This document shows, in pieces, positions 4,405 through 20,836 of a stretch of DNA of 20,836 bases. This stretch comes from Acidimicrobiales bacterium (lineage in GTDB: Bacteria; Actinomycetota; Acidimicrobiia; Acidimicrobiales; Acidimicrobilacustridaceae), in contig JALOLF010000084.1 in assembly GCA_025456085.1 (NCBI GenBank), forward strand, positions 1 through 20,836. The letters run 5' to 3'. Made by a program: the position numbers and the translations under genes. The notes beneath the pieces were generated by a model. The model saw only the letters and a list, made by a program, of their open reading frames with translations, made no database searches and was not told the origin of the DNA. How positions within the stretch are numbered: position 1 is the first letter of the stretch; every line of letters starts with the position of its first letter.

Positions 4405-4448
4405 CAGCCCCTGCCAGCACCCCTGCCCCCCCTGCAGCCCTGCATCCC
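4405..4448 (+). repeat. C-rich degenerate CCCTGC-type short direct repeats in intergenic leader
   Basis: CAGCCCCTGC CAGCACCCCTGC CCCCCCTGC AGCCCTGC directly after the SDR stop and about 60 nt upstream of the NeuB-like start. CTGC recurs four times at 9-12 nt spacing. Confidence 0.4.
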
Positions 4449-4505
4449 ACGGTGACCCGAGTGACGGCGAACGACATCCTCCCCACGAGCCCGAGGCCGG
4501 CGCCG

Positions 4506-5487: not shown

Positions 5488-7383
5488 GTGACCGAGACCC
5501 TGGTCCACCTCGACGTCGACCCCGCCGACGCCTCGCTGCTGGCGCTGCTGCGCGCCCGGGTGGGCGCCGGCGCGCGGCTCGCGGTCCCCGCCGGCACGGC
5601 ACTCGACGGGGAATGGGCCGGGCCGGTGGTGACGGTCACCGGCCGGGCCGCGTTCTCGATCCTCGACGACACGGACCGACTGGTCGAGACGCTCATCGAC
5701 ACCGCACGCACCCGGGGCGCGGACGAGGACCTGCTGGCCGCGCTGGAGGCGGCCCGCTTCCCCCTGGCCGTGGCGCTGGCACCGGACTGGCACCGCTGGC
5801 GGACCGTGAGCCGGCTCATCGCCGAGCACCGACCCCGGCGGCTGGTGGTGGTCTCGTCGTCGATGCGATCGCGTCGCGACGCCGCCCGGTTCGCCCGGTC
5901 GTTCCCGGGCGTGGCGGTGGAGGTGCTCGACGTCCGGACCCGCGGCGCCCGGCTGGAGCGCTGGCGGCAGCGGATCCACGCAGCCCGGGTGCACGCCGAG
6001 TCCCGGGTGCACGCCGAATCCGCCCGTGGCGGCGCGGCGCCCCACGACCGGCCCGTCGTGGCCTTCGTGGAGTTCTTCCCCAACAACCTCAAGGCGTCGC
6101 TGCCCGTGGCCGGGGCGCTGGCCGAGCACCACGGCCTGCGACCGATGTGGATCGCCTGCCGCCGGGCCGTCGTCGATGCGCTCGCCGACGCGGATGCCCT
6201 CGGGGGCACGCGCGCGACCGACGACGTGGTCACGGCGCCCGCGACGCTGGAGCTGCCGCCCGACCCGTTGCTCCACCGCGCCACCGCGCGGCGCCTCACC
6301 GCTGCCGGCCTGCGCGACGCGGTGCGCGCCTTCGCCACCGGGTTCCCACCCCCTCCCGGAACTCGGGCGGATGGATGCCGGAGACCGACCTCGGAGGACC
6401 CGATTTCGGAGCTTGTGCGGGCGGGGGCGCGGGCGCGGGCGGGGGTGGTGGACCCGTGGCTCGTGCCCACCGTGCGCCGTCATGCCGTCGTCACGGCGGC
6501 GGGCGGCGAGCGGTGGCGGCGCTGGCTCGCCGAGACGATCACCGGACTCGATGCCCGGCTCGTGGTCGTGACCACGCCCTACGACCTGACCGCTCGCGCC
6601 GGCGTCGTGGCAGCCCACCGCGTCGGTCTCCCCACGGCGTGGATCCAACACGGCATCTACAACCCCCGCCACGCCCACCGCAGCATCGACGTGGACCTGG
6701 CACTGCTGTGGGGCGAGTACGAGGCCGCCGACCTCCGGGACCGGCAGCCTCCGATCGGCGAGATCGCGGCGGTGGGCTCCCCGGTGCACGATCCCCTCGC
6801 CGTCCATCGAGCCGTGCGGGCGCAACGGCGCTTCCCCGCCGAGGGCGAGCCGCTGCGGGTGACCTATCTGGCCTCCCACTCACGGTGGTTCTACACGCTC
6901 GACGACGCGGCCCGGGCGACGTCGGTGGTGTGCGAGGCCGCGTCCCGGCTTCCCGACGTCGAGCTGACCGTCAAGTGCCATCCGCACGACGACACGGGCG
7001 TCCCCGAGGCCGCGGCGGGTCCCTTCCCGGGCGTCGTGGTGGTGCGCCATGGCGACAGCCGGGAGCTCACCGTCGCCTCCGACTTGGTGATCGTGCGGGA
7101 TTCGACAGCCGGCTACGAGGCCTGCATGGCCGACGTCGCGCTCCTGGAGCTCGAGATCGGCGAGCGGGTGCTCGACTTCTCCTACACCCACCTCGGAGCG
7201 GCCCGACCCGTGCGCAACGCCGACGACATCGTCGCTGCTGTGCGGGACCTGCGCGAGGACCCTGCGGCACGTGCGGCCCTCGCCGCGGGGCGGGAGCGGT
7301 TCCGGGTCCACCACCTCCACGGCGGCCACGGCGACGCCGCCACGACCGCCGCCGACCAGCTGGCGCGCCTCCTGACGCGCTGA
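5488..7383 (+). CDS. putative TagF/KpsC-like GT-B polymerase or transferase (K-x-HP motif); function unknown
   Basis: 631-aa frame with normal composition, whereas the overlapping alternate frames are Arg/Gly/Pro junk. The C-terminal third carries RVTYLASHSRWFYT ... LTVKCHPHDD ... DLVIVRDSTAGYEACMADVALLE. This resembles the acceptor-binding, HP and nucleotide-binding motifs of CDP-glycerol glycerophosphotransferases and KpsC/KpsS-like transferases. GTG start at 5488. Confidence 0.55.
   Translation: MTETLVHLDVDPADASLLALLRARVGAGARLAVPAGTALDGEWAGPVVTVTGRAAFSILDDTDRLVETLIDTARTRGADEDLLAALEAARFPLAVALAPDWHRWRTVSRLIAEHRPRRLVVVSSSMRSRRDAARFARSFPGVAVEVLDVRTRGARLERWRQRIHAARVHAESRVHAESARGGAAPHDRPVVAFVEFFPNNLKASLPVAGALAEHHGLRPMWIACRRAVVDALADADALGGTRATDDVVTAPATLELPPDPLLHRATARRLTAAGLRDAVRAFATGFPPPPGTRADGCRRPTSEDPISELVRAGARARAGVVDPWLVPTVRRHAVVTAAGGERWRRWLAETITGLDARLVVVTTPYDLTARAGVVAAHRVGLPTAWIQHGIYNPRHAHRSIDVDLALLWGEYEAADLRDRQPPIGEIAAVGSPVHDPLAVHRAVRAQRRFPAEGEPLRVTYLASHSRWFYTLDDAARATSVVCEAASRLPDVELTVKCHPHDDTGVPEAAAGPFPGVVVVRHGDSRELTVASDLVIVRDSTAGYEACMADVALLELEIGERVLDFSYTHLGAARPVRNADDIVAAVRDLREDPAARAALAAGRERFRVHHLHGGHGDAATTAADQLARLLTR
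5986..6021 (+). repeat. 18-bp tandem duplication inside the CDS (encodes RVHAES RVHAES)
   Basis: CGGGTGCACGCCGAGTCC followed by CGGGTGCACGCCGAATCC, one mismatch. Confidence 0.6.
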
Positions 7384-7642: not shown

Positions 7643-9115
7643 ATGCCGGACAAAGACGAGGCCTCCGAGCCGTCCCCGGGGGCGGGCCGTCCCGACGAGT
7701 CGCCGGGTGGCACCGCCGACGCACCCGCCACGCCCCCCACGCCACCGGCCCCGGCTGCGCAGACCCCGCCGACCGTCCCCCAGCCCCCCGCCCCCGCCCC
7801 CGCCGCAGCCGCGGCCGCGGCCGGCCCGACGCCAGAGGGCGAGCCCACAGCGCCCCCGGTGACCGCTCCCGCCGGCGACGCGTCCGGCCCGCAGGCGCCA
7901 ACCGAGCCGGGCGAGCAGCTCCCCCGTCCCAAGAAGAAGGCCGCCAAGAAGGCCGCTGCCAAGCGCACCGCTCCACTTCTGCACACCCCCGAGCCGCCCA
8001 CCACGGAGGTGCCACCGGTCAAGGTGAGCTGGCGGGGCATCGCCGACGACGCCCCCGAGAAGCCCGCCAAGCGCAGCGGCGTGCTGGCTGCGGTCGGCCG
8101 GGGCGTCGCCGCGCTCCTCGAGGCGATCGGCCTCAAGCGCAAGCGCAACGCCGACGGCAGCCTCCAGCCCCGTGCGTGGAAGCGGCTCGGCATCGTCGGC
8201 GGCAGCGCGGTGGTCGTGCTCTTCCTGTGGACGATGGTGCACATCGTGCCGGCCGGTTCGGTGGGCGTGCCCATCACCCTGGGCAAGGCCGGCGGCGAGC
8301 TGGGGCCGGGCCTGCAGCTCACCGTCCCCTTCACCCAGGTCAAGACGATGTCCACCCGGACCCAGAACTACACCATGACCGCCATCCAGGGCGAGGGCCA
8401 GTATGCCGGCGACGACTCCGTGGCCGTGCTGGGCCGCGACGGCGGCGCGGCCAACGTCGACGCCACCGTGCTGTTCCGCCTCGACCCCGGGGAGGCCACC
8501 CGGGTCTACGAAGAGGTCGGCACCGACTTCCCGACCAAGCTGGTGCGCCCCGCGGCGCGCACGTGCATCCGCGCCGCCTTCACCAAGTACGACATGGTCG
8601 AGGCCGCCACCAGCGCCTGGGAGCCCATGGCCGACGAGATCTCGGACTGCATGCGGGAACGGATCGAGCCCCGCGGCATCCAACTGCTGGACTTCCAGCT
8701 GCGTGAGGTCCGCCTGGCCGACCCGGTCCAGCAGGCCATCGACGCCAAGGTCGCCGCGCAGCAGCAGGCCGAGCGTCAGCGCTTCGAACGCCAGACGGCC
8801 GAGCAGCAGGCCGACATCTCCCGCATCAACGCCATCGCCACCGCCGACTCCCAGCAGATCCTGGCCTGTGGCGGCACCGTCACCACCGTCGAGAAGGACG
8901 GCCAGCAGGTGCAGGTGGTGACCCCCAACCCGACCGAGCAGTGCGACCAGGCCCAGCTCACCCCGCAGTACCTGCAGTACACCTACATCCAGGCGCTGAA
9001 GCAGCTCGTCGACTCGCCGAACAACTCGACCATCATCCTGCCGATGGACCAGAACCTGACGCCGCTGCTGAACATCGACGGCACCACGGCCACCACCACG
9101 GCGCCCGGCGGCTGA
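7643..9115 (+). CDS. SPFH/band-7 (prohibitin/HflC/flotillin-like) membrane protein with a long Pro/Ala/Thr-rich disordered N-terminal tail
   Basis: Strong RBS. About 190 aa of low-complexity sequence (PATPPTPPAPAAQTPP...KKKAAKKAAAKR) is followed by a TM helix (LGIVGGSAVVVLFLWTMV). The SPFH core (VPAGSVGVPITLGKAGGELGPGLQLTVPFTQVKTMSTRTQNYT ... VLFRLDP) and a Gln/Ala/Glu-rich coiled-coil C-terminal region follow. Confidence 0.85.
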   Translation: MPDKDEASEPSPGAGRPDESPGGTADAPATPPTPPAPAAQTPPTVPQPPAPAPAAAAAAAGPTPEGEPTAPPVTAPAGDASGPQAPTEPGEQLPRPKKKAAKKAAAKRTAPLLHTPEPPTTEVPPVKVSWRGIADDAPEKPAKRSGVLAAVGRGVAALLEAIGLKRKRNADGSLQPRAWKRLGIVGGSAVVVLFLWTMVHIVPAGSVGVPITLGKAGGELGPGLQLTVPFTQVKTMSTRTQNYTMTAIQGEGQYAGDDSVAVLGRDGGAANVDATVLFRLDPGEATRVYEEVGTDFPTKLVRPAARTCIRAAFTKYDMVEAATSAWEPMADEISDCMRERIEPRGIQLLDFQLREVRLADPVQQAIDAKVAAQQQAERQRFERQTAEQQADISRINAIATADSQQILACGGTVTTVEKDGQQVQVVTPNPTEQCDQAQLTPQYLQYTYIQALKQLVDSPNNSTIILPMDQNLTPLLNIDGTTATTTAPGG

Positions 9116-9140: not shown

Positions 9141-9180
9141 CCGGACGTCGGCGACCAGACGTCGACGACCGGACGTCGGC
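9141..9180. repeat. 12-bp perfect direct repeat CCGGACGTCGGC x2 with GACGTC palindromic cores
   Basis: Copies at 9141-9152 and 9169-9180, with GACCAGACGTCGACGA between them. The second copy abuts the wzt stop codon. Confidence 0.4.
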
Positions 9181-9974
9181 TACATGTCCTCGGCGGCGGT
9201 GGCCTCGTCGAGGACGCCCTCGAAGCGCAGGTAGGCGTCGACCACGTCGGGAGCGGGGCCCTCGGCCATCACCCGGCCCTTGTCGAGCCACAGGCACCGG
9301 TCGGCGAGCGACGAGATGATCCGCACGCCGTGGGTGATGATCATCACGGTGCAGTCGCGCTCGCACAGCTCGCTGATCTTGTCCGAGGACTTCTTCTTGA
9401 AGCGGGCGTCACCGGCGGCCAGAGCCTCGTCGATGAGCACGATCTCGGGGTCGAGGTGCACCGCGACTGCGAACCCGAGCCGGGCCGACATGCCCGAGGA
9501 GTAGGTGCGCATCGGGTAGTCGATGGCGTCGGCCAGCTCCGCGAAGGCCACGATGGCCTGGTACTGCTCCTGCACCTCCTCAGGGGCGAGGCCCATGGCC
9601 AACCCGCCGAGCAGCACGTTCTCGCGGCCGGTGAGCTCCCGGTTGAAGCCGATGCCGAGAGAGAACAGCGGCGTGACGTGGCCCCGCACGACGACACGAC
9701 CCTCGCTCGGGGTGAGGATGCCGCAGATGGTGCGGAACAACGTGGACTTGCCGGCGCCGTTGCGGCCGATCACGCCGCACACCGAGCCCCGCTGCACGGT
9801 GAAGCTCACCCCCCGCAGGGCCTCCACGTAGCGGGTCACCTTGCGTCGTTGGGTCATGCCCACGAGCGTGCGCTTGAGCGTGGCCTCCTGACTCGAGCGG
9901 TAACGCAGCCAGAGGTCCTGCACCTCGATGGTGGGTGGAACCGCCAGCGACGCGGTCTCAGAGTCGAACGGCAA
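9180..9974 (-). CDS. wzt: ABC transporter ATP-binding protein, polysaccharide/teichoic-acid exporter type (Wzt/TagH/KpsT-like), without a C-terminal carbohydrate-binding extension
   Basis: Walker A GRNGAGKST, signature YSSGMSARLGFA, Walker B IVLIDEALAAGD, and H-loop ITH, across 264 aa. TAG stop at 9180-9182. The start is probably TTG at 9972-9974 (first in-frame start), which would overlap the wzm end by 17 nt, so the start is uncertain. Confidence 0.88.
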   Translation of the reverse strand: MPFDSETASLAVPPTIEVQDLWLRYRSSQEATLKRTLVGMTQRRKVTRYVEALRGVSFTVQRGSVCGVIGRNGAGKSTLFRTICGILTPSEGRVVVRGHVTPLFSLGIGFNRELTGRENVLLGGLAMGLAPEEVQEQYQAIVAFAELADAIDYPMRTYSSGMSARLGFAVAVHLDPEIVLIDEALAAGDARFKKKSSDKISELCERDCTVMIITHGVRIISSLADRCLWLDKGRVMAEGPAPDVVDAYLRFEGVLDEATAAEDM

Positions 9975-10809
9975 GGTCCCGCTCCCGACGCAGGAAGTAG
10001 AAGGCCCCCAACCCGAAGACGGCGACCGCGAAGACGGTCATCATGAACAGGCCCTTGGCGGTGGGGCCGTGCCCGGTGAAGATCAGCTCCAGCGAACCCA
10101 GGAACCAGTACATGGGGTTCAGCTTGAGGTACGGGGCGATGTTGGGCGGCACCTCGGACACGGTGAACAGCACCGGCGACACGTACAGCCAGATGCGCGT
10201 GGCGTAGGGGAGGATGTCGGACGCGTCCCGGAAGAACACCGTGACGGTCGAGGCCAGCAGGGCCAGACCCAGGTTGAACATCGTCAACAGCACCAGGATC
10301 AACGGCAGCCACAACAGCGCGGCCGTGATGGGCTGGCCCAGCAGCACGTGCAGCCCCATGTACACGACGAAGGTGGGCAGGAAGTCGAGGAAGGCCTCGA
10401 TCACGGCCACCAGGGGGAACACCAAGCGGGGCAACGAGGAGTTGAGCACGGTGTTGCGGTTGGACAGGATCGCCTTCGTCCCGCCCATGAGCGACGCCCG
10501 GGTGTAGCCGAAGAAGAACACGGCCATGATGAGGTGGGCGAGCAGCGCGTTGCGCTCGGCATCGGTGCCGATGGGACGCACCACGGTGCGCAGCAGGTAG
10601 TAGACCGCCGCCTCGAGGAGCGGATCGAGCACGATCCAGGCCTGGCCGATGACCGTGTCGTAGTGCTGCGCCTTTAGCTCGCTGCGCGACAGGTGCCACA
10701 TGAAGGCCCGGCGACCCCAGATCTCGCGCAGGTAGCGGTGCAGCGGCGGCAGACCGGTGTCGGTGGGCTCGTAGACGTGGACGGTGGGAGACGACGAGGG
10801 CTCGGCCAT
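9958..10809 (-). CDS. wzm: ABC-2 type polysaccharide exporter permease (Wzm/TagG/KpsM-like)
   Basis: About six hydrophobic TM segments (LLAHLIMAVFFFGY, LVFPLVAVIEAFLDFLPTFVVYMGL, ALLWLPLILVLLTMFNLGLALL, MMTVFAVAVFGLGAFYF). I chose the internal ATG (MAEPSSS, complement 10807-10809) over the track start at 10902, whose first 31 aa look like a non-coding extension. Confidence 0.82.
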   Translation of the reverse strand: MAEPSSSPTVHVYEPTDTGLPPLHRYLREIWGRRAFMWHLSRSELKAQHYDTVIGQAWIVLDPLLEAAVYYLLRTVVRPIGTDAERNALLAHLIMAVFFFGYTRASLMGGTKAILSNRNTVLNSSLPRLVFPLVAVIEAFLDFLPTFVVYMGLHVLLGQPITAALLWLPLILVLLTMFNLGLALLASTVTVFFRDASDILPYATRIWLYVSPVLFTVSEVPPNIAPYLKLNPMYWFLGSLELIFTGHGPTAKGLFMMTVFAVAVFGLGAFYFLRRERDLAVRL

Positions 10810-10903
10810 GGGGTGCACTGGCCCCGACCGGCTCGGCGCGCGGGCCAGCCGGGGAGGAGGGGTGGAGGTACGGTCAGGGTAGCCAACCGGGAGACCACGC
10901 ACG

Positions 10904-10922
10904 GGCCGGTTCGGGACCGGCC
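10904..10922. promoter_or_regulatory. 19-bp inverted repeat GGCCGGT-tcggg-ACCGGCC in the divergent wzm / lipoprotein intergenic region
   Basis: 7-bp perfect arms with a 5-bp spacer, about 95 bp upstream of the wzm start and 100 bp upstream of the lipoprotein gene start. Confidence 0.3.
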
Positions 10923-11021
10923 GCGAGCCTCCGATCGGCTGGGGTCGGCTAGGTTACGCGTTCAACGACGTCCGTCGCGCCGAGTCCCGCGCTCGATCCG
11001 GCACGCAGGAGATCCGATTCC

Positions 11022-11864
11022 GTGAAACGACCCCGCTCGGCACTGCTGCTCGCGCTCCGACTGCTGTTGGCGTGCACCGTGCTGTTGGCGGTTGCCGGGT
11101 GCAGCGACGACGAGGAGCCGACGTCGTCCGGCTCCCGGGGCACCGCCAGCGACGCCGCAACCAAGCCCACGGTCGGCGCCGGCGACCGGGCGACCACGGT
11201 GACCATCTACGCACCCGACCAGCTCCAGCGGGCCATGAACGAGCTCAAGGGCGGGTTCGAGTTCCTGACCGAGTACACCGTCGTGATCACGCAGGGCTCC
11301 GAGACCGACCTCATCGCCGGTGTGCAGGGCGGCGACCGACCCAACCTGCTCGTCGCCGACACCACCGAGCTCATGCCCCTCGTCGACAACGGCACGATCA
11401 TCGCCACCCCCACCGACTTCGGCACCGATCCCCTGCTGATGTTGACCGCCAAGGGCAACCCCGAGGGCGTCCCGGCGCAGATCGGGGTCTTCGGCGAGGG
11501 AAGCGCCTTCGTGACCGGCCTGTGCGCGCCGGACGTGCCGTGCGGCGCCGCGGCGCAGTCCGTGTTGCAGCAGGCCGGCGTCACACCAGCAGCCGACACC
11601 GTGGAGCCCACGGGTCGCCGACTCACCGACAATGTGGCCAAGGGCAAGGTCGACGTGGCGCTGGTGTTCCGCAGCGACTACATGAACCGGTTCTTCCGGA
11701 CCGGCGCGCTGGCGGATCCCGACTTCGCGCCCTACGTGATCACCTACGACATCGGCACCATCGAGGAGACCGACGCCTCCAAGGCCTTCCTCGAGTTCCT
11801 GGGCTCGATCGCCGGCCGCACGATCCTCGTGCAGCGGGGCCTCCTCCCGCTCGGCTCGGTGTGA
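11022..11864 (+). CDS. ModA/WtpA-like oxyanion (molybdate/tungstate/sulfate family) periplasmic-binding lipoprotein
   Basis: GTG start with AGGAGA at 11007-11012. Signal peptide plus lipobox LAVAG-C. The mature protein aligns by eye to ModA: VTIYAPDQL (like ITVFAAASL), GDRPNLLVADT (like GAPADLFISAD), KVDVALVFRSDY (like LGIVYGSDA), and a SKAFLEFL C-terminal segment. Confidence 0.7.
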   Translation: MKRPRSALLLALRLLLACTVLLAVAGCSDDEEPTSSGSRGTASDAATKPTVGAGDRATTVTIYAPDQLQRAMNELKGGFEFLTEYTVVITQGSETDLIAGVQGGDRPNLLVADTTELMPLVDNGTIIATPTDFGTDPLLMLTAKGNPEGVPAQIGVFGEGSAFVTGLCAPDVPCGAAAQSVLQQAGVTPAADTVEPTGRRLTDNVAKGKVDVALVFRSDYMNRFFRTGALADPDFAPYVITYDIGTIEETDASKAFLEFLGSIAGRTILVQRGLLPLGSV

Positions 11865-11877
11865 GCACCGGCCGCTG

Positions 11878-12870
11878 ATGGGGACCGACTCAGCCGCGCT
11901 GGCGGGCCGAACCGCCGTGTGCGTCACCGGCATGCACCGCAGCGGCACCTCCTTCGCGACCCGGGCCGTGCAGTTGCTGGGCGTGTCGTTGGGAGACCCC
12001 GAGCGCCTCATGCCGCCGGGACGGGACAACCCGAGGGGCTACTTCGAGAACGCCCGCGTCAAGGAGCTCGACGACGAGATCCTCGCCCACCTCGACGGAT
12101 CGTGGGACGCCCCACCGGTGCTGGCACCGGGCTGGGAGCTCGACGCGGGCCTCGACGAGCTGCGGGCACGGGCGGCAGCCGAGCTGGCCGAGACCTTCGC
12201 CGCCACGCCCCCCGGTGAGCCCATCGGCTGGAAGGACCCCCGGCTGTCGCTGCTCCTGCCCCTGTGGCGCACCGTCTCGCCCATCTCCACCACCATCGTG
12301 GTGGTGCGCGACCCGGCCGAGGTGGCGGCGTCGCTGCACACCCGCAACGGCATGCCCCCGGCGCAGGCTGCCCTGCTGTGGTTGCGCTACCTGCTGGCGG
12401 CCACCACGAACGATCCCGGCCACCTGCTGGTGCGTCACCGGGACTTCTTCGAAGACCTCCCGACCACGCTGGCCCGCATCGCCACCCACCTCGCCCTGCC
12501 CGCACCGGACGAAGCGACGCTCGAGGCGGTGCGCGGCCACCTCGACCCGTCGCTGCACCACCACGACAACCGACGCTCCACCCAAGCCGCGTCCGCGCCG
12601 GCTGCCACCGCCCCGGCGGAGTCCGACCCGGCTGGAGCCGACCCGGTGACCCGTCTGGCGACGCAGGTGTGGAACGGCGGCGACGTCGACGTGACGCTGG
12701 TGCCCGAGCCGATGGCCGCCGCCGTCCGGGAGGGGTGGTTGCGACCGCCCGTCGACGGCGAGGCCTTGGCCCGGGCGCGGGCCAAGGTGGTGGAGCTCAC
12801 CGAGGAGATCCGCCGTCGCAACCGGGAGAAGGCCGCGGCCAGGGCCGCGGCCCGGGGCGGGACGGGGTGA
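11878..12870 (+). CDS. sulfotransferase family protein (Sulfotransfer_3/Stf0-like; PAPS-dependent)
   Basis: 5'-phosphosulfate-binding P-loop VTGMHRSGTSF and the GWKDPRLS motif. 330 aa. ATG 11878 lies 13 nt after the lipoprotein stop. Confidence 0.75.
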   Translation: MGTDSAALAGRTAVCVTGMHRSGTSFATRAVQLLGVSLGDPERLMPPGRDNPRGYFENARVKELDDEILAHLDGSWDAPPVLAPGWELDAGLDELRARAAAELAETFAATPPGEPIGWKDPRLSLLLPLWRTVSPISTTIVVVRDPAEVAASLHTRNGMPPAQAALLWLRYLLAATTNDPGHLLVRHRDFFEDLPTTLARIATHLALPAPDEATLEAVRGHLDPSLHHHDNRRSTQAASAPAATAPAESDPAGADPVTRLATQVWNGGDVDVTLVPEPMAAAVREGWLRPPVDGEALARARAKVVELTEEIRRRNREKAAARAAARGGTG

Positions 12871-13742
12871 GCGACGCCCCGCAGCTGGTGCACCCCGAGG
12901 GCTGGGTCCTGGACTGGATCACCCGGGACCGGCTCGCCCGACAGCTGCGCAGGGCGGATCCCGCCGTCGACGGCATCGTGGCGCCAGCGACCGAACTTCC
13001 CGCCGGTGCGTCGTTCCGGGTCCACGCCGAGCGGTGCGCCCTGCGGCCCGTGGACGCGCTCGAGCCACTGGGGTCGGCCACGACGGCCGACGCCACCTCG
13101 GTGCGCGGCGCGCTGCTGGTGCGACCCGGCGTGCGGTGCACGGTCGAGGGCGACGTCGTCGCTGCGCCCGGCGCCCACCTGCTGGTCGATCCCGGTACCC
13201 ACGCCCACGACCCCTGGCAGCCGCCCACGGCGCTGGTCGACGCCTCGCCCGCGGCCCGGCCGCCGTTCCCGTGGCGACCGGTCGTGGCGGTGGTGGTGTG
13301 CGGCCCGGACCCCGATCCCGACCGGCTCGACTGGGCCCGCTCGATGGTCAACGCCCTGCTACGCCGCGACGTCGAGGGCCGGCTCGCCGTGACCGCCGCG
13401 CCCGAGGGGCTGCACCTCACCCGCCCCTGTCTGGCCTCACCGGCCTCGCTCGAGGCCCTCGCCCCCGACGTGGTGGTGGCGGCCGACGACGCGGCGCGGG
13501 AGGCCGCTCCGGGGTGGTGCCGACGCCGCTCGACCGTGGTGGTCGAGGTGGCCGACGATCCCCTGCTCGGCGTCGAGCTGGTTTCGTGGCGGCTGGGTCG
13601 AGCCCAGGGCCGACTGCGGGCCCGGATCGGGGAGCGGGTGGCACCGGCGACGGTGGCCGACCTGGCCCGCCGCCTGAGTGCCGGACCCCAGCCCGAACCA
13701 CCGCAGCCCAAACCCGCGCTGCGGGCGGTGGCCGAGCCGTGA
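12867..13742 (+). CDS. hypothetical protein (no recognisable domain)
   Basis: 291-aa frame bounded by GTGA overlaps at both ends (12867-12870 and 13739-13742) and sandwiched inside the coupled operon. Typical high-GC composition. The competing minus-strand ORF 12797..14941 is Gly/Arg/Ser low-complexity junk. Confidence 0.5.
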   Translation: MSDAPQLVHPEGWVLDWITRDRLARQLRRADPAVDGIVAPATELPAGASFRVHAERCALRPVDALEPLGSATTADATSVRGALLVRPGVRCTVEGDVVAAPGAHLLVDPGTHAHDPWQPPTALVDASPAARPPFPWRPVVAVVVCGPDPDPDRLDWARSMVNALLRRDVEGRLAVTAAPEGLHLTRPCLASPASLEALAPDVVVAADDAAREAAPGWCRRRSTVVVEVADDPLLGVELVSWRLGRAQGRLRARIGERVAPATVADLARRLSAGPQPEPPQPKPALRAVAEP

Positions 13743-15889
13743 GCACCGCCACCCCCGTGACCGTGGTGGTGCCCGTCTACCGGGGCCTCGACGACGTGCG
13801 GGCCTGCCTGGCCAGCCTGCGACGCCACGCCGCGGGATGCGCCACCGACCACGACGTGCTGCTCATCGACGACGCCTCGCCCGAACCGGGCATGGCCGCC
13901 CTGCTCGACGGCCTGGCCGGCGGAGCGACCGGCGGCCCGACGGTGCGGGTGCTGCACAACGCGCAGAACCTCGGTTTCGCGGGCACCGTCAACCGGGGCT
14001 TCGCCGAGTCCGACGGCGACGTGGTGGTGCTCAACGCCGACACCGTCGTCACCGCCGGCTGGCTCGACCGTCTCGCGGCCACGGCCGCCACGGCCACCGA
14101 CGTCGCCACGGTGACGCCGCTGACCAACGCCGGGTCCATCTGCACGGTGCCCCGGGCGGTCATCGCCACCTTCGACCTCGACGGGGACCAGCCCCGCATC
14201 GACGACTGCGCCGCCCACGTGGCGGCCGAGTCGCTGAACCTGCGGCCGGCGGTCATCACCGGGGTGGGGTTCTGCCTGTACGTCACCCGGGCCGCGCTCG
14301 ACGACGTCGGCCCCTTCGACGCCGAGACCTTCGCAGCCGGCTACGGAGAGGAGGTGGACTTCTGCCTGCGGGCCGGCGCCCGGGGCTGGCGGCACCTGGT
14401 GGACGACGCCACCTTTGTCTTCCACCGCCAGGGTGGCTCGTTCGGCGCAGCCCGCGACGAGCGACGCGCCACCAGCGCCGCCCTGCTGCACCAGCGGTAC
14501 CCCACCTTCGGGGCCGAGAACGCCGCCGAACGGGCCCGGGACCCGCTGGCCGTGCCGTTCGCGGCCCTGGAGCTGGGCCTGCACCGCCGGCGTCCCGACC
14601 GGCCCCTGGTGCTGCACCTGCTGCACAACTCCCCCGAGGAGCTGGGCGGCACCGAGACCCACCTGCGCACCCTCGTGGAGGCGCTGTGGCAGGAGTTCGA
14701 CGTCGCGGTGCTGCACCCGGTGCGCGGCGGTTTCGTCCTGCGGATCACCTTCGAGGACCGCCACGGCACCCGCGCCGAGCAGGAGCTCCACCTGCCCGGC
14801 GCACCCGAGCTCGACGCGCCGGCCGGCACCGGGGGACCCGCCGGGGAGGAGGTGCTCGACGAGCACGCAGCCGAGGCCCTGCGCCTGGCGCTGGCGCTGG
14901 AGGACGTGGCCGCCGTGCACCTGCAGAACCTGGTGGGCCACTCGTTGGCGCCGCTAGCGGTGCTGGCCGACTTCCCCGGTCCGGTGGTGTGCTCGGTGCG
15001 CGACCTGTACCTGGCCTGCCCCCACCACTGGCTGCTCTACCGCAACGCCGAGCCGTGCGGCATCCCCGAGGACCGCTCGCTGTGCGCCCGGTGCCTGCCG
15101 GAGGCCAAGGGCCTCCCGGTCGAGTACCTGGAGACCTTCCGCGACACGGTGACCCGCTGGCTCGACACCGTCGACCACTGGGTCTTCTCCACCAGGAGTG
15201 CCGCCGACTACTTCGCCCGGGTCTACGACGTGCCCGAGGAACGGGTGCAGCTCATCCCCCACGGCGCCACCATCCCCCTCGGCCCCCGAGATGGCGACGC
15301 CGACCTGCCTGACACGGACGCCGTGCTCACTGGTCCGCTGCGCCTGGCCTTCGTGGGTCGGGGGTGGGCCAAGAAGGGGCTGGGCGTCGTCAACCACCTG
15401 GTGGCCGACCTGGCAACCATGGACGAAGACGCTGTCGACGTGGAGGTGCACCACTTCGGCGAGCTGCGCGAGGCCGCCCACCCCGATCTGGTCCTGCACG
15501 GCACCTACGACAACCGGGACCTCCCCGGTCTGCTGCACCGCGCCGGCATGCACGTGGTGCTGTTGCCCGGCCCCTACGCCGAGACCTTCGGCCACGTGAT
15601 GACCGAGGCGCTGGTGGCCGGCCTGCCGGTGATCGGCGCCGGCTACGGAGCGTTGGGCGAACGCATCCGGGCCGAGGCGGTGGGCTGGACCATCGAGCCC
15701 ACCGACGCCGACGGGGTGCGCGACCTGGTGGTGAACCTGGCCCGCTGCCGCCCGGAGGTGCGCCGAGCCACCCGCCAGGCCCGACGCGTCGCGCTGCGAA
15801 CCGTCGCCGAGACCGCGGATCGCTACGCTGCCCTCTACCGCGCGCCGGCCCCGGCGGGGCGCGAACCCACGTGGGAAGCGACGACGTGA
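13739..15889 (+). CDS. bifunctional glycosyltransferase: N-terminal GT2 (GT-A) domain + C-terminal GT4/GT1 (GT-B) domain
   Basis: VTVVVPVYRG...LLIDDASPE...VLNADTV (GT2 DxD region) and, at the C-terminus, ETFGHVMTEALVAGLPVIGAGYGALGERI (the GT4 E-x7-E-like motif). 716 aa. The GTG start overlaps the upstream TGA. Confidence 0.85.
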   Translation: MSTATPVTVVVPVYRGLDDVRACLASLRRHAAGCATDHDVLLIDDASPEPGMAALLDGLAGGATGGPTVRVLHNAQNLGFAGTVNRGFAESDGDVVVLNADTVVTAGWLDRLAATAATATDVATVTPLTNAGSICTVPRAVIATFDLDGDQPRIDDCAAHVAAESLNLRPAVITGVGFCLYVTRAALDDVGPFDAETFAAGYGEEVDFCLRAGARGWRHLVDDATFVFHRQGGSFGAARDERRATSAALLHQRYPTFGAENAAERARDPLAVPFAALELGLHRRRPDRPLVLHLLHNSPEELGGTETHLRTLVEALWQEFDVAVLHPVRGGFVLRITFEDRHGTRAEQELHLPGAPELDAPAGTGGPAGEEVLDEHAAEALRLALALEDVAAVHLQNLVGHSLAPLAVLADFPGPVVCSVRDLYLACPHHWLLYRNAEPCGIPEDRSLCARCLPEAKGLPVEYLETFRDTVTRWLDTVDHWVFSTRSAADYFARVYDVPEERVQLIPHGATIPLGPRDGDADLPDTDAVLTGPLRLAFVGRGWAKKGLGVVNHLVADLATMDEDAVDVEVHHFGELREAAHPDLVLHGTYDNRDLPGLLHRAGMHVVLLPGPYAETFGHVMTEALVAGLPVIGAGYGALGERIRAEAVGWTIEPTDADGVRDLVVNLARCRPEVRRATRQARRVALRTVAETADRYAALYRAPAPAGREPTWEATT

Positions 15890-16857
15890 CCGACGACGAG
15901 CAACGCCTGAGGCGGCACCTGCGTGCCTTGGCGGCCACCAACCGACAGCTCCACGAGCAGGTGGAGGCGCTCGGGGGCGGCCGGCCCGCCAAGGACCTGC
16001 GCGACGACCTGACCCGGCTCGCGGGCCGCGGCGAGCGCGACTGCATCCTGGCCCAGCGCGAGGACGGCGCGGTGTTCCTCGTGGACGGCGGCCTGCGCCG
16101 CGACGTGACCTGGCAGCTGCTGGCCGAGGCCCTCGAACGCCACCTCGGCGGTCGACGCGAGCTGGGCGCGGACGAGCTCGACGCGCTCGAGGCGGGCCCA
16201 CCGGTCCAGGTCCTGCAGAGCTCCCACGGCGCACCGTTCGTGGTCGTCGGCGGTGAGCGCCTCCCGCTGCGCGGCCTACCCACCCCCCTGTTCGTGCCCG
16301 CCCGCGACGTACGCGACCTGGGTGAGGGTCCGACCCTGTCGGTGGGGCCCGACGGCGGCGAGCAGTCCGCCGCCGCCCGACGGACCAGGCGGGCCCGACG
16401 CTGGCTGGCCGAGCTCGCCGCCCAGCCGCCCGACGCCGACGGCGCCATCGCTCCCCAGCTGGTGGCCGCACCCGACGGCGCCGTGCACCTGCTCGACGGC
16501 GGTCGGCGCCGTCGGGTCGCCGGCCGCCTGTTGGCCGACGCGCTCGCCACCCGGTTCGGCCCGTGGCGACCCGTCACCGACGACGAGCTGGACCGCCGGC
16601 CGGAAGGCCCCCCGGTGGAGGTGCTCGAAGGTCCCGACGGCGCGGCAGTCGTCGTGGCCGCGGGCCGGCGGCTGCGCCTCCGGGGCTACCCGGCCGCCCA
16701 CCTCGTCGACGCCGCCGGGCTCGACGACTTCCCTGAGGGCGACCCGCTCCCCCTGCAGACCCCGAACACGGGGACCGGTGGCGGGTCGCTGCTCGACAGC
16801 GGACGCCACCAGGTGGTCGAGCTGGGTAGCCGGCTCCGTTCCCGGCTCGGCCGATGA
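15886..16857 (+). CDS. hypothetical protein with an N-terminal coiled-coil-like segment and an internally duplicated roughly 95-aa domain
   Basis: Repeat 1 reads DGAVFLVDGGLRRDVTWQLLAEAL...ELDALEAGPPVQVL...VVVGGERLPLRGLP. Repeat 2 reads DGAVHLLDGGRRRRVAGRLLADAL...ELDRRPEGPPVEVL...VVVAAGRRLRLRGYP. GTGA and ATGA overlaps lie at the two ends. Confidence 0.6.
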   Translation: MTDDEQRLRRHLRALAATNRQLHEQVEALGGGRPAKDLRDDLTRLAGRGERDCILAQREDGAVFLVDGGLRRDVTWQLLAEALERHLGGRRELGADELDALEAGPPVQVLQSSHGAPFVVVGGERLPLRGLPTPLFVPARDVRDLGEGPTLSVGPDGGEQSAAARRTRRARRWLAELAAQPPDADGAIAPQLVAAPDGAVHLLDGGRRRRVAGRLLADALATRFGPWRPVTDDELDRRPEGPPVEVLEGPDGAAVVVAAGRRLRLRGYPAAHLVDAAGLDDFPEGDPLPLQTPNTGTGGGSLLDSGRHQVVELGSRLRSRLGR

Positions 16858-17606
16858 CGCCGCCGCTACCCACCTTCCTCGTCATCGGCGCGCAGAAGAG
16901 CGCCACCCGCTGGCTGCGACTCAACCTGTTGGCCCATCCCGAGGTGTACCTCGCCCCGACCGAGCTCGAGTTCTTCGACCACGACGACCGCTTCGAGCGA
17001 CTCGGCCCCGACTGGTACCGCCAGCAGTTCGCCGACTGGGACGGCGCCCCCATCATCGGGGAATCGACACCCGGCTACCTGATGTGGCGGCGCCGGCCCG
17101 AGGTGGTGGCCGAGCGCATCGAGCGCACCCTGCCCGACGTGCGGCTGGTCGCCCTGCTGCGCAACCCGGTCGACCGGGCCCACTCGGCCATGGTGCATCA
17201 CATCACCCGGGAACGGCTCCGACCCGACAGCTCCCTGGTGGCGCTGGCCCGCACCCGGCCCGCCGACACCGACTGGCTGGGACTCGTCGCCGGCGGGTGG
17301 TACGGGGCGAGCCTCGAACCGTACGTGCGCCGCTTCGGCGAGCGGCTGCTGGTGCTGCTGCACGACGACGTCGGCACCGACCCGGCCGGCGTGTACGCCG
17401 CCGTGCTGCGCCACCTGGGCGCCGACGCCACCTTCGTACCCCCCGAGCTCGACCAGGTCCGCTTCTCCAACCGTGCGGCCGCACCCCGAGACGTGCGCCC
17501 GCTGTCCGACGCGGACCGCCGCGAGCTGCACAACTACTTCGTCGACGACCTCCGCCGGCTCGAGGACCTCCTCGACCGGGACCTGCGTTGCTGGGAGCCC
17601 GCATGA
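16854..17606 (+). CDS. sulfotransferase (Sulfotransfer_1 family, carbohydrate sulfotransferase-like)
   Basis: 5'-PSB motif TFLVIGAQKSATRWL (like PKSGTTW) and 3'-PB motif LLRNPVDRAHS (like RNPxDxxVS). 250 aa. ATGA overlaps at both ends. Confidence 0.85.
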   Translation: MTPPLPTFLVIGAQKSATRWLRLNLLAHPEVYLAPTELEFFDHDDRFERLGPDWYRQQFADWDGAPIIGESTPGYLMWRRRPEVVAERIERTLPDVRLVALLRNPVDRAHSAMVHHITRERLRPDSSLVALARTRPADTDWLGLVAGGWYGASLEPYVRRFGERLLVLLHDDVGTDPAGVYAAVLRHLGADATFVPPELDQVRFSNRAAAPRDVRPLSDADRRELHNYFVDDLRRLEDLLDRDLRCWEPA

Positions 17607-19282
17607 CCGCGCTGCACGAGCTCGCCGCCCTCGCCCTGTGCGACCCCAGGGCCGCCGACCCCTCGGGCCGACGCCGAACCGACCCGGAGCTCGACCGCCG
17701 GGTCGCCCTGAGCCGCAAGGCCGCGTGGTGGTTCTTCGTGGCCGCCCTGGTCGCGGGGACCGTGGTGCTGCTCGTGGCGTTCGCCGACTACCAGTGGTTC
17801 TTCCTGGACGAGTGGCTGTTCCTGTCCGATCGCGAGGCCACCTCGATCGACGACCTGCTCCGGGACCACAACGGCCACTGGTCGACCGGGCCGGTCCTCG
17901 TCTACCGGCTGCTGTTCGCGTTGTTCGGACTGCGGACCTACCTGCCGTATCAGCTACCCGTCATCGCCTCGCACCTGGCAACCGTGGTGCTGTTGCGTCT
18001 CGTGATGCGCCGCAGCGGCGTGAGCCCGTGGATCGCCACGTTCGCCGCGCTGCCCCTGCTGCTGTTCGGCAGCGGCCAGGAGAACATCCTCTGGGGGTTC
18101 CAGATCGCCCTGGCCGGCGCCCTCCCCCTCGGGCTGGGCCACGCCCTGCTGGCCGACCACGACGGCGCCATCGACAAACGGGACTGGATCGGCCTGGCGC
18201 TCGGCGGGCTGGCGCTCACGTTCGGCGCCGTCGGGGTCGTGATGATCGGCGTGGTTGCCGTGTCGACCTTCCTACGCCGCAGCTGGAAGCCAGCGCTGTT
18301 CCACGCCGGGCCGCTCGTGGCCGTGTACCTCGTGTGGCGGGCTGCCATGGAGCCCGCGAACTCGCTGCTCACCGGCCTCGAGAGCGTGGACGTCGTCTTC
18401 CGCTTCGCCCGGGACCTGTTCTCGGACTCCTACGACGCGCTGGCAGGCGGGGCCGTGCTCGCGTGGCTGGTCGCGCTGCTCCTCGTCGGCGGTGGTGTCC
18501 TGATCGCGCGCACGAGGTCCCTGCGCGACATCCGAGCCGAGCTCGCTGTACCCATCGCGTTGCTCTTGGGCGCGGTCGCGTTCGCCGTGCTCACCGGCAT
18601 GAGCCGGTGGTTCGGCGGAACCGCCGGCACCGCACCGGGGCGCTACATCTACCTCCTGGCGGCCTTCACGCTGGTGCCGCTGGGGGTCGCGGCCGACGCC
18701 ATCCTGCGGCGGTGGCCACTGGCTTTTCCTGGCGTGGCGGTGCTCCTGCTGGCCGGCGTCCCGTCGAACATCGACGCCTTCGCCCCCGCCCTGTCGAGCA
18801 GCCCGGCGACCCTCGTCGGTTGGGCGAGCCATCCCCTCGTCGACCAGGTCGCCGCCGGTGTGCGCCCGGACCCCACGGGCCACCCCGGCCTGACGGTGGG
18901 ATGGCTCCGTGACGTGCGCGACGCAGACGACCTCCCCGATGCCGAGCCTCCCGGACGGTCGCCTGCCGACCGGATCCGGCTCGGACTGCTCCAGTCAGAC
19001 GACACGGCACCGACCGGGTGCGTCGAGCTCGCCGGCCCTGTCGACCTCTCGCTGGGCAAGGGCGACCGGGTCGGCTTCGAGGTGGTGGCCGTCGAACCGG
19101 ACCTTCCGCTCCTGGTCCCGGACCTGCTCATCGCCCCGAAGGAGGGCAGGACCGATCGCTCGGTGGGGTACGCGGCGCGCGACGGCAACGTCCTGGAGGC
19201 ACAGACCGACCTGGAGCTGACGCTGCAACCCACCGACAGCGTGACCGTCCGCGTGTGCCACCCCTCCCTCGCATCGGGCTGA
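17603..19282 (+). CDS. polytopic integral membrane protein (about 10-11 TM helices) with a roughly 170-aa C-terminal soluble domain; possible GT-C-type transferase or polymer-processing protein
   Basis: Multiple hydrophobic helices (WWFFVAALVAGTVVLLVAF, LPYQLPVIASHLATVVLLRLV, IATFAALPLLLFGSG, IGLALGGLALTFGAVGVVMIGVVAV, VLAWLVALLLVGGGVLIA, YIYLLAAFTLVPLGVAA, AFPGVAVLLLAGV). ATG 17603 overlaps the upstream TGA. The track ORF 16253..19282 has a junk N-terminal extension. Confidence 0.75.
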   Translation: MTALHELAALALCDPRAADPSGRRRTDPELDRRVALSRKAAWWFFVAALVAGTVVLLVAFADYQWFFLDEWLFLSDREATSIDDLLRDHNGHWSTGPVLVYRLLFALFGLRTYLPYQLPVIASHLATVVLLRLVMRRSGVSPWIATFAALPLLLFGSGQENILWGFQIALAGALPLGLGHALLADHDGAIDKRDWIGLALGGLALTFGAVGVVMIGVVAVSTFLRRSWKPALFHAGPLVAVYLVWRAAMEPANSLLTGLESVDVVFRFARDLFSDSYDALAGGAVLAWLVALLLVGGGVLIARTRSLRDIRAELAVPIALLLGAVAFAVLTGMSRWFGGTAGTAPGRYIYLLAAFTLVPLGVAADAILRRWPLAFPGVAVLLLAGVPSNIDAFAPALSSSPATLVGWASHPLVDQVAAGVRPDPTGHPGLTVGWLRDVRDADDLPDAEPPGRSPADRIRLGLLQSDDTAPTGCVELAGPVDLSLGKGDRVGFEVVAVEPDLPLLVPDLLIAPKEGRTDRSVGYAARDGNVLEAQTDLELTLQPTDSVTVRVCHPSLASG

Positions 19283-19304
19283 GCCGGCGACGGAGCTTCG
19301 GTCG

Positions 19305-20836
19305 TCACACGAAGCGTCGCGCCACCCGCCGGGCGGTGTCGTCGACGCGCGACGGCAGGCGGGGCCCGACCCGCTGCCAGTTGCGCCAGGCCAGCTCCAC
19401 CGCGCGGGCCCGCAGCGCGGGGTTGCGGTCCAACAGCACCTGGGTGCGGCTTCGGGCCTGTTCCCGGGCCCGGAAGTAGCTGTCCATCCAGCCCGCCACG
19501 GCCCGGGCGATGTCGCGGTTCCGGGCGTGGCGCTCGGGCGGGCAGCTCGCCAGGCGGGCCGTCTCGGCGTCGCCCATCCACTTGTCCAGGAACCGCTGGC
19601 GGTTGGCGGCCCACAGCCCCCGCCAGTCGTCGAGACGCGTCGCGGTGCCCTTGGAGATGTGGTCGACCAGCACCCGCTCGTCGACCACGATGTCGAGCTC
19701 GTTGACCCACACCTGGAACGCCAGGTCCACGTCCTCGCCCGAGGCCACCGGATACTCCTCGGACCAGCCGCCCAGCTCCTCGACGACGGCGCGGCGCATC
19801 ACCCACACCACCGCCGCGGGCGGCGCCGAGAACGGTGCCACGTCGAAGACCTCCGTGCCGGGCACCTCCCGCACGCTGATGGCGTTGTTGGCGGCCGTGA
19901 CCGCCGGGGCCACGATGCCCACCCCGGGTCGCTCGTCGAGCACCGACACCAGCGTCGACGCCCAGGCCTCGGGTAGGACCGTGTCGTTGTTGCAGAAGGC
20001 CACGTAGCGACCCCGGGCCTGGGCCAGCCCCTGGTTCATGCCGCAGGCGAAGCCCCGGTTCGTGGGGTTGAGCACCACCCGGTCGCCGGCGTGCGCCGCG
20101 TAGTGGGCCGCCTCGGGGGCCGAACCGTTGTCGACCACGATCAGCTCGTAGGGCACGTCGGTGTGGGCCCGCACCGACTGCACGAAGCGCTGGGTCAACA
20201 GCAGCTGGTCCCAGGCCGGCACCACCACCGACAGCACCGGATCGTCCGGTGCCTCGGGCCGCTGTGGCGGCGGCGCGCTGATCATGCCGGCCACGACGCC
20301 ATCGAGCACCTCGGCCAGCTCGTCGGTGCGTCGCTCCCAGTCGAAGGACCCGGCCACCAGCTCGAGGCCGTTGCGGGCGAGCCGCTGCGCCAGCTCGGGA
20401 TCGTCCAGCAGGCGCCTCACGGCTTCGGCCATGGCCCCTGCGTCCTTCGGAGGCACGACGAGCGCCGTCTCGCCGTCGATCGCGTACTCGCGGCAGCCTC
20501 CGTTGTCGGTGGTGACCAGCGGTGCGCCACACGCCAGGGCCTCGAGGCCGGGCTGGCAGAACCCCTCGTACCAGGAGCCCACGGCGAACACCTGGGCAGC
20601 GCTGTAGGCCCGACCTAGCTCCTCCTGGGAGAGGTGCTTCGGGGCGTAGCGGTCGAGGGGCACGCCGGCCCGACGGGCCGCCTCCACGATGGTGTCGGTG
20701 CCCTTCCACGGGCGGCGGTCGTCGCCCACGCACAGCAGTGGCACCGTGCGGGGCACGTCCCAGGGGTGGAAGGTGTCGCGGTTGACGCCGCCGAGCTGCA
20801 CCGTGGGCCGCACGCCGGTCACCTCGGCGACGCGGT
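19305..20836 (-). CDS. bifunctional glycosyltransferase, GT4-type domain followed by GT2 domain (N-terminus lies beyond the right edge of the window)
   Basis: The frame stays open past the track start at 20822 to the window end. GT4 C-terminal motif GFCQPGLEALACGAPLVTTDNGGCREY, then GT2 LSVVVPAWDQ...LIVVDNGS...AFCNNDTV. Stop TGA (complement) at 19305-19307. Convergent with the 17603 gene, with a 22-bp gap. Confidence 0.8.
   Translation of the reverse strand, partial: RVAEVTGVRPTVQLGGVNRDTFHPWDVPRTVPLLCVGDDRRPWKGTDTIVEAARRAGVPLDRYAPKHLSQEELGRAYSAAQVFAVGSWYEGFCQPGLEALACGAPLVTTDNGGCREYAIDGETALVVPPKDAGAMAEAVRRLLDDPELAQRLARNGLELVAGSFDWERRTDELAEVLDGVVAGMISAPPPQRPEAPDDPVLSVVVPAWDQLLLTQRFVQSVRAHTDVPYELIVVDNGSAPEAAHYAAHAGDRVVLNPTNRGFACGMNQGLAQARGRYVAFCNNDTVLPEAWASTLVSVLDERPGVGIVAPAVTAANNAISVREVPGTEVFDVAPFSAPPAAVVWVMRRAVVEELGGWSEEYPVASGEDVDLAFQVWVNELDIVVDERVLVDHISKGTATRLDDWRGLWAANRQRFLDKWMGDAETARLASCPPERHARNRDIARAVAGWMDSYFRAREQARSRTQVLLDRNPALRARAVELAWRNWQRVGPRLPSRVDDTARRVARRFV

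Follow-up and report, generated by a model that had tools for sequence, protein, structure and literature searches.

A conserved actinobacterial gene module of sulfotransferases, glycosyltransferases and partner proteins: putative core of a pathway for a sulfated cell-envelope glycan

Bacteria rarely make sulfated polysaccharides, and little is known of the way in which sulfotransferases are guided to the growing chain (PMC11641403). Described clusters for comparison include the sulfated capsule clusters of marine Gram-negative bacteria of the Vibrio sp. KMM 8419 type, in which cytoplasmic glycosyltransferases and sulfotransferases of the 3'-phosphoadenosine 5'-phosphosulfate (PAPS) type are combined with export by an ATP-binding cassette (ABC) transporter; the presence of the PAPS-synthesis genes cysDNC within the cluster has been called a hallmark of sulfated-polysaccharide clusters (PMC11641403). 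With respect to export, the systems to be compared are those of wall teichoic acid (TagGH) and of mycobacterial galactan (Wzm/Wzt, Rv3781/Rv3783), where multi-domain glycosyltransferases build the polymer on the cytoplasmic side of the membrane. In this study, we analysed a metagenomic stretch of 20,836 nucleotides, namely positions 1 to 20,836 of contig JALOLF010000084.1 (assembly GCA_025456085.1), which is called the window below. The window has a GC content of 73% and was assigned by NCBI to a metagenome-assembled genome (MAG) of Acidimicrobiales, with the locus tags MUF83_15215 and MUF83_15225; three JGI metagenomes contain proteins identical to those of the window. We focused on six consecutive genes on the plus strand, g1 to g6 (11878-19282), which encode two sulfotransferases (g1 and g5), a bifunctional glycosyltransferase (g3), a putative membrane glycosyltransferase (g6), and two proteins of families that are fused to sulfotransferases in relatives (g2 and g4).

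This gene set probably represents the core of an ABC-transporter-dependent pathway, in which a sulfated cell-envelope glycan would be made, sulfated at multiple sites, exported, and then modified or transferred outside the membrane by g6. Two findings carry this reading: the genes occur together in about 25 loci, and fusion proteins tie g1 to g2 and g4 to g5. Both support the initial annotation of the window, made from the DNA letters alone, which had found the content consistent with a dedicated system for a sulfated glycan or glycolipid.

Sulfotransferases and their fusion partners

The 250-aa protein encoded by g5 (16854-17606, plus strand) is a PAPS-type carbohydrate sulfotransferase that resembles the heparan sulfate enzymes 3-OST and NDST. 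Its scores were above both relevant Pfam cutoffs, 40.6 bits for Sulfotransfer_3 (cutoff 27) and 23.2 bits for Sulfotransfer_1 (cutoff 22). Accordingly, the earlier assignment to Sulfotransfer_1 holds as a match, while the best family is Sulfotransfer_3. Among proteins with solved structures, g5 matched PDB 3rnl with an E value of 5.8e-20 and 3-OST-3A with 1.7e-14. The segments GAQKSATRWL, ELEFFD, and RNPVDRAHS of g5 aligned to GVKKGGTRAL, EPHFFD, and RDPVTRAIS of 3-OST-3A, and the aligned residues include the Lys of the 5'-phosphosulfate loop, the catalytic Glu of E-x-x-FFD, and the R..S motif for the 3'-phosphate.

The product of g1 (11878-12870, plus strand, 330 aa) is a Sulfotransfer_3-type sulfotransferase with a helical, coiled-coil-like C-terminal tail, which is conserved in the g1 family. 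Sulfotransfer_3 was matched by all 10 of the 10 aligned family members (best E value, 1.4e-9). Two motifs, G18-M-H-R-x-G-T-S25 and R144-D-P-x-E-V-x-x-S152, were invariant across the family, and we take them to be the PAPS loops. When g1 was compared with the PDB sequences, no significant match was observed. The initial annotation had described g1 as Stf0-like; this assignment was rejected, because the best match was Sulfotransfer_3 and PF09037 was absent among the matches with E <= 0.01 for g1 and with E <= 0.1 for 10 family members. The presence of two sulfotransferases was thus supported by the domain searches, in the case of g1 through its family. The accompanying claim that they belong to different families stands in part: the two are distant from each other, since BLASTP of g1 against g5 gave no match, but their best Pfam family is the same. 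Judging from these motifs, g1 and g5 are most likely PAPS-dependent sulfotransferases with a putative sulfuryl transfer activity.

The two genes described as coding for unknown proteins are linked to the sulfotransferases by fusions in relatives. g2 (12867-13742, plus strand), placed through its homologue family, is the stand-alone N-terminal module of a larger family with 189 representatives, most of which are long forms of 620-660 aa. The extra C-terminal half of the long forms is similar to glycosyltransferase family 4 (GT4), matching the structures of MshA and PimB, and it is absent from the whole window. The N-terminal module had no match among the PDB sequences. The short stand-alone form recurs in other genomes. 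One relative, P0165, combines a g1-type sulfotransferase with a coiled coil, the g2 module, and the GT4 half in a single protein. A relationship of g2 to g3 or g4 was considered and rejected, the hhalign probabilities being 0.5% and 0.1%, respectively.

g4 (15886-16857, plus strand) consists of a conserved N-terminal helix followed by two repeats that are putatively similar to PlyCB and EccB. The tandem duplication predicted for it is evident from 46% identity over 99 residues (E value, 5e-17). In this small family, the N-terminal helix is constant, and the repeat of approximately 100 aa comes after it in one to four copies. In two relatives, P0011 and P0198, the helix and one repeat are fused to a g5-type sulfotransferase. 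Neither a signal peptide nor a membrane segment was found in g4, and since it is fused to a PAPS-type enzyme in relatives, the protein is presumed to be located in the cytoplasm. The repeats may resemble domains that bind cell-wall glycans, and g4 is accordingly presented as a putative glycan-binding adaptor for a sulfotransferase. These two putative partner families, fused to sulfotransferases in relatives, are among the new elements of the locus.

Conservation of the module and the stop-start overlaps

A genome scan with an alignment of 13 close g2 sequences yielded 25 loci, in which the other genes were mapped by tblastn. The loci carried labels of Acidimicrobiia or broader Actinomycetota, including Microthrixaceae and Aquihabitans. 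A single locus with the full module, L033 (CAZLEC010000060.1), was labelled 'uncultured Burkholderiales bacterium', whereas all the others had Actinomycetota labels; this label is probably a binning error rather than a sign of horizontal transfer.

Wherever a related locus offered enough context, g2 was followed by a g3 homologue with 52-58% identity. g4 adjoined g3 in 16-17 of 20 loci, and in a third of the loci it was on the strand opposite to g3. A g5-type sulfotransferase was present in about 19 of 20 loci, often in two to four copies, and g1-type enzymes were found in most loci, so that a locus contained up to four or five sulfotransferase genes. g6 was found within 10 kb in seven loci and was absent within this distance in most; its homologues also occurred in glycan clusters without sulfotransferases. 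The adjacency of g2, g3, and g4 and their overlaps were kept at only 35-58% protein identity. The order and strand of g1, g4, g5, and g6 differed between loci, a frequent layout being g1+ g5- g2+ g3+ g4- g5+ ... g6+. Because of this variation, the colinear six-gene operon is lineage-specific, while the gene set itself is a conserved module. Conservation of the neighbourhood was thus seen for the gene content but not for the colinear operon as a unit.

Five consecutive junctions of the operon are overlaps of four nucleotides, in which the stop codon of one gene shares bases with the start codon of the next. The tetramers can be read directly as GTGA at 12867, 13739, and 15886 and as ATGA at 16854 and 17603. 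A plot of GC at the third codon position (GC3) showed an unbroken run of plus-strand genes from 11022 to 19282, and the codon-position patterns were those of the plus strand throughout 11878-19282. The frames of g1 to g6 were 1, 3, 2, 1, 3, and 2, that is, one frame back at each junction, exactly as successive four-nucleotide overlaps would give.

Other in-frame GTG starts lie nearby, at 13757 for g3 and at 15871 for g4, and automatic annotations of the same DNA differ: g3 was called with 710 or 716 aa, and g4 with 323 aa, with 328 aa, or as a split gene. In the NCBI annotation of GCA_025491015.1, for example, g4 is replaced by a 171-aa fragment and a 130-aa antisense gene. The disagreement at g4 arises because the first codon position of g4 is as GC-rich as the third (0.89 and 0.90, respectively), which makes antisense open reading frames (ORFs) appear coding; indeed, two minus-strand ORFs over g4 (15835-16881) passed the GC3 filter. 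These ORFs, 15835-16275 and 16276-16881, were rejected as alternatives to g4, since the plus-strand product belongs to a conserved family, has an internal repeat, and gave a confident model.

The starts at the overlaps agreed with the homologues. The N-terminus of the g4-family proteins, 'MT..DE..RLRR', is in register with GTG 15886, and the alignment of g3 homologues begins at residues 1-4 of the 716-aa form. In related loci, a start with a four-nucleotide overlap that fits the expected N-terminus was observed at the g2-g3 junction in 14 of 18 cases and at the g3-g4 junction in most cases on the same strand. Furthermore, an unrelated JGI contig has three consecutive four-nucleotide overlaps through a long g2 form, g3, a g4-sulfotransferase fusion, and a sulfotransferase. 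The overlap starts are therefore preferred over the alternative ones, and the five consecutive overlaps, which the initial annotation had reported with the caveat of mis-called starts, are real. Our simple model gives a chance of about 0.14 for a spurious in-frame RTGA overlap at one junction and of about 6e-5 for all five. Since, in most groups of prokaryotes, overlaps are seen in about 15% of the pairs of co-directional genes (PMC6728339), the overlaps as such are unremarkable and by themselves matter little. Overlapping pairs often code for subunits of complexes (PMC10666635).

The operon probably begins one gene before g1. The gene at 11022-11864 (plus strand) encodes a ModA-like solute-binding lipoprotein, as the initial annotation had suggested: it matched Pfam SBP_bac_11 at 1e-18, NCBIfam modA at 2.3e-9 (under the cutoff), and ModA structures at 4e-7, and it contains the lipobox LLAVAGC. 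An AGGAG precedes its start, GTG 11022. When the 20 nucleotides before each start from this gene to g6 were inspected, the canonical AGGAG was found only there; the starts of g1 to g5 lacked a core Shine-Dalgarno sequence, and g6 had GGAG at -9. A ModA-like gene was also located directly before g1 or g2 in five loci (L007, L021, L029, L032, and L035). Because only the lipoprotein gene has AGGAG, it is probably the first of seven genes in all; the linkage of the six genes claimed earlier holds, while their start at g1 probably does not. The absence of a core Shine-Dalgarno sequence before g1 to g5 is suggestive of translation that depends on reinitiation, and the stoichiometric co-expression stated in the initial annotation is presumptive. 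A promoter and terminator scan of 10700-19500 gave no promoter-like site and, as possible terminators, three weak hairpins, all inside genes, although DNA of 73% GC makes such a scan uninformative.

Glycosyltransferases, exporter and neighbouring genes

As had been proposed, g3 (13739-15889, plus strand, 716 aa) is a fusion of glycosyltransferases of families 2 (GT2) and 4, with matches to Glycos_transf_2 (4.5e-17), Glycos_transf_1 (5e-9), and Glyco_transf_4 (3.1e-8). Between the two halves, the residues C427, C440, C449, and C452 were invariant in nine homologues, and this four-cysteine cluster may form a zinc site.

The initial annotation had seen in g6 (17603-19282, plus strand) a polytopic membrane protein whose C-terminal domain is soluble. 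This description held, and the predicted structure, which was confident (mean predicted local distance difference test score, pLDDT, 86), extends it: the GT-C membrane fold was recognised, AftB, AftD, and AftA were among the fold matches, and the C-terminal part was modelled as an extracytoplasmic beta domain with a conserved cysteine pair. The N-terminus is presumed to face the cytoplasm because it is Arg-rich. The motif FFLDEW follows directly after the first transmembrane segment, in the first outside loop, where D69 is invariant and E70 is conserved in at least 90% of the homologues. Neither Pfam nor NCBIfam gave a match for g6, and 26 family members likewise belonged to no described GT-C sequence family such as PMT, STT3, ArnT/PMT_2, or Arabinose_trans. 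From the model, g6 is a putative GT-C glycosyltransferase. A polyprenyl-phosphate sugar synthase was sought beside the g6 homologues in locus L023, where the genes proved to be a short-chain dehydrogenase/reductase, a methyltransferase, and PhyH. Genes for PhyH-type Fe/2-oxoglutarate dioxygenases adjoin or lie near g6-family genes in L001 (13515-14591), L009 (3383-4159), L011 (11808-12659), and L023 (17193-18146), and the dioxygenase gene has a radical-SAM/SPASM gene (353-354 aa) as its neighbour in L007 and L009.

A second bifunctional glycosyltransferase, of the GT4-GT2 type, is convergent with the operon (19305-20822, minus strand; Glycos_transf_1, 1.8e-22; Glycos_transf_2, 9.5e-18). Its 5' end lies outside the window, and on the longer contig L001 the protein has 638 aa. 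Homologues with 53-64% identity were found in many related loci.

The divergent exporter noticed in the initial annotation was also verified. It comprises a Wzm-like ABC-2 permease (9958-10902, minus strand; ABC2_membrane, 4.1e-10), which weakly matched the galactan export permease and KpsM models, and a Wzt/TagH-like ATPase of 264 aa (9180-9974, minus strand; ABC_tran, 4e-21). The ATPase matched the teichoic acid export ATPase (6.2e-57) and galactan export Wzt/RfbE (1.3e-56) models over the whole protein; the scores of both exporter proteins were far under the equivalog cutoffs of these teichoic acid and galactan exporter models. Its 264 aa are fully covered by a 244-position ATPase model, and a C-terminal carbohydrate-binding domain is absent. 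By the longest-ORF calls the two genes overlap by 17 nucleotides (9958-9974, minus strand); the start of the permease is uncertain, with 283 aa in the JGI call and 314 aa in the longest ORF. Wzm/Wzt genes were located beside the module in five loci (L007, L008, L025, L032, and L035). The ATPase gene is adjoined by an SPFH/Band_7 gene, the long N-terminal part of which is unannotated (7643-9115; ORF open from 7376). Such a gene was also found beside Wzt in L025, L032, and L035, which suggests that the association of the glycan exporter with a flotillin-like scaffold is conserved.

Nonulosonic-acid genes of the window occur as two unusual fusions with an 11-nucleotide overlap (1631-3556 and 3546-5393), one joining a PseF-like cytidylyltransferase to a Gfo/Idh/MocA oxidoreductase and the other joining an unannotated domain of about 320 aa to NeuB; the polymer may also contain a sialic-acid-like sugar. 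The next ORF (5488-7383, 631 aa) gave only a weak match to 'surface carbohydrate biosynthesis protein'. Downstream of the window, L001 (16840-19817) encodes a protein of about 1100 aa with TylF-type methyltransferase, GT2, and CmcI-type methyltransferase domains; such a protein is also encoded in L008, in L009, and on the P0011 contig, and an Acyl_transf_3-SGNH O-acetyltransferase gene lies nearby. The glycan probably also bears methyl and acetyl groups.

Proposed pathway, alternatives and comparison with known systems

The pathway that we propose would operate as follows. A single transcript would run probably from the ModA-like gene through g6, and the genes after the first, which largely or wholly lack a separate ribosome-binding site, would be translated by termination-reinitiation at the four-nucleotide overlaps. 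In the cytoplasm, g3 and the GT4-GT2 enzyme encoded next to the operon would jointly extend a lipid-linked glycan, and g1 and g5 would sulfate the glycan at different positions. Each sulfotransferase would have a non-catalytic partner, g2 for g1 and g4 for g5; the N-terminal helix of g4 would serve for docking and its PlyCB/EccB-like repeats would hold the glycan. The polymer would then be exported by Wzm/Wzt. Outside the membrane, g6 would add a sugar from a polyprenyl-phosphate donor or transfer the glycan to an acceptor.

A more specific version is unlikely to hold as a whole. In it, uncultured Acidimicrobiia would possess a heavily sulfated, phosphate-free anionic wall polymer, the sulfation of which would be organised by the g2 and g4 adaptor families. 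The helix of g4 would dock on the g3 polymerase while its one to four repeats hold the nascent chain in the cytoplasm, the repeat number would set the sulfate spacing or the chain length, and the orphan ModA-like lipoprotein would act at the cell surface, either by recognising the sulfate esters or by supplying sulfate.

Several observations weigh against the proposed pathway. All 25 loci come from MAGs and none from an isolate; there is thus no cultured carrier. g1 itself matched Sulfotransfer_3 weakly, with 25.3 bits against a cutoff of 27; g2 matched none of the Pfam families even at E <= 1 and lacks a recognisable fold; and the fold scores of g4 were modest. The Pfam-annotated genes of the window and the L001 flank include no initiating polyprenyl-phosphate phosphoglycosyltransferase, an enzyme commonly encoded outside the cluster. 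Likewise, none of the PAPS-synthesis genes cysD, cysN, and cysC, and neither an APS-kinase nor an ATP-sulfurylase domain, was found among the Pfam-annotated genes of the window and the L001, L007, and L008 flanks, and there was no obvious polyprenyl-phosphate sugar synthase near g6 or its homologues. Finally, the variation of gene order and strand among the loci makes it unlikely that all six proteins form a fixed complex.

Among the alternatives, the one that survives best is glycosylation of a protein, for example of an S-layer, and we regard it as unlikely. A lipid-linked sulfated glycan exported by Wzm/Wzt would in this case be put on a surface protein by g6 acting as an oligosaccharyl- or O-glycosyltransferase. 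However, the C-terminal domain of g6 has only about 150 aa, the translation shows no WWDxG-type motif, and Pfam STT3 or PMT was matched by none of the 26 family members. Moreover, the window contains no candidate acceptor protein, and g6 is not within 10 kb of the module in most related loci.

Quite unlikely is a chain-terminating role, in which one sulfotransferase with its coiled-coil or repeat partner would cap the non-reducing end and thereby set the chain length, in the manner of WbdD with its phosphate-methyl cap in E. coli O9a, and the number of g4 repeats would act as a ruler. The window Wzt lacks the C-terminal carbohydrate-binding domain that terminator-dependent systems use, g4 is opposite in strand to g3 in a third of the loci, and up to four or five sulfotransferase genes per locus fit decoration at multiple sites better than a single cap. 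The idea gains from the helical segments at the C-terminus of g1 and the N-terminus of g4, from the variation of the g4 repeats behind a constant helix, and from the presumed translational coupling of g4 to the polymerase-like g3; moreover, WbdD is a coiled-coil terminator of an ABC-transporter pathway (PMC3482155).

To a similar degree improbable is the explanation that the genes share a large, variable glycan island as ordinary neighbours, where the overlaps would reflect compact high-GC operons and g2 and g4 would be unrelated to sulfation or degenerate. It is consistent with the frequency of overlaps in general (PMC6728339), with the fluid gene order, with the lack in the window g2 of the GT4 domain that most relatives have, and with the g6 homologues found apart from sulfotransferases. 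Such neighbours would not be expected to show two independent kinds of fusion, g1-g2 and g4-g5, or an adjacency of g2, g3, and g4 with overlaps that survives at 35-58% identity; furthermore, the short g2 form is present in other genomes as well. The least probable explanation is a sulfated glycolipid comparable to the mycobacterial sulfolipids, that is, a short glycan on a lipid that is sulfated and then flipped, to which sulfotransferases beside glycosyltransferases in an actinobacterium and the earlier Stf0 analogy point, but against which stand the lack of an Stf0 family match, the absence of polyketide synthase, lipid acyltransferase, or MmpL-type genes from the window and its flanks, and the three multi-domain glycosyltransferases and teichoic-acid/galactan-type Wzm/Wzt, which point to a polymer.

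The sulfated-glycan pathway with dedicated partners, which we prefer, would offer a concrete case of sulfotransferase targeting in a widespread uncultured actinobacterial class: each sulfotransferase is tied by fusions to a presumed non-catalytic partner, one partner (g4) is built of a variable number of repeats like those of glycan-binding domains, and the putative GT-C family is unrecognised by sequence databases. If a sulfated wall polymer is indeed produced, it would be a phosphate-free anionic wall polymer, relevant to envelopes in phosphate-poor waters and soils, and it would bear on the enzymatic production of sulfated glycans. A literature search returned nothing relevant on sulfotransferases in Acidimicrobiia or on sulfated wall glycopolymers of actinobacteria.

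Compared with the marine capsule clusters (PMC11641403), which carry cysDNC, the Acidimicrobiia module has none in the window or the annotated flanks; its host is an actinobacterium, and the g2 and g4 families, the GT-C enzyme, and the ModA-like lipoprotein are not described there. The wall teichoic acid and galactan exporters are the best matches of the window Wzt and Wzm, and synthesis on the cytoplasmic face by multi-domain enzymes is what we propose here too. In mycobacteria, extracytoplasmic GT-C enzymes such as those recovered as fold matches of g6 decorate the exported polymer, whereas g6 belongs to no described GT-C family. Neither wall teichoic acid nor mycobacterial galactan is known to be sulfated.

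At the level of single proteins, g5 shares with heparan sulfate 3-OST and NDST and with bacterial PDB 3rnl the PAPS-loop Lys, the catalytic Glu, and the R..S motif; this likeness is one of fold and motif only (E values from 1e-14 to 6e-20), and some relatives of g5 are fused to a PlyCB/EccB-like repeat. The cell-wall-binding domains of PlyCB and of an enterococcal phage lysin, as well as the EccB repeat domains, act outside the cell, whereas the g4 repeats are implied to be cytoplasmic and their glycan binding is putative. The WbdD O-antigen terminators likewise belong to an ABC-transporter pathway and are modifying enzymes whose non-catalytic parts are helical or extended (PMC3482155). WbdD adds a phosphate-methyl group instead of the sulfate presumed here, shows no sequence relationship to the present proteins, and works with a cap-reading domain that the window Wzt lacks. 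Synechan, a sulfated exopolysaccharide of cyanobacteria, is reportedly made by a Wzx/Wzy-type route in a Gram-negative envelope, and we know of no description of partners like g2 or g4 for it. Its xss genes likewise form a polysaccharide cluster with sulfotransferases (PMC13125312). Taken together, the combination of glycosyltransferases and sulfotransferases with an ABC exporter in one cluster has already been described, and what is new in the present locus is the taxon, the partner families and their fusions, the unrecognised family of the putative GT-C enzyme, and the ModA-like lipoprotein that is probably co-transcribed with them.

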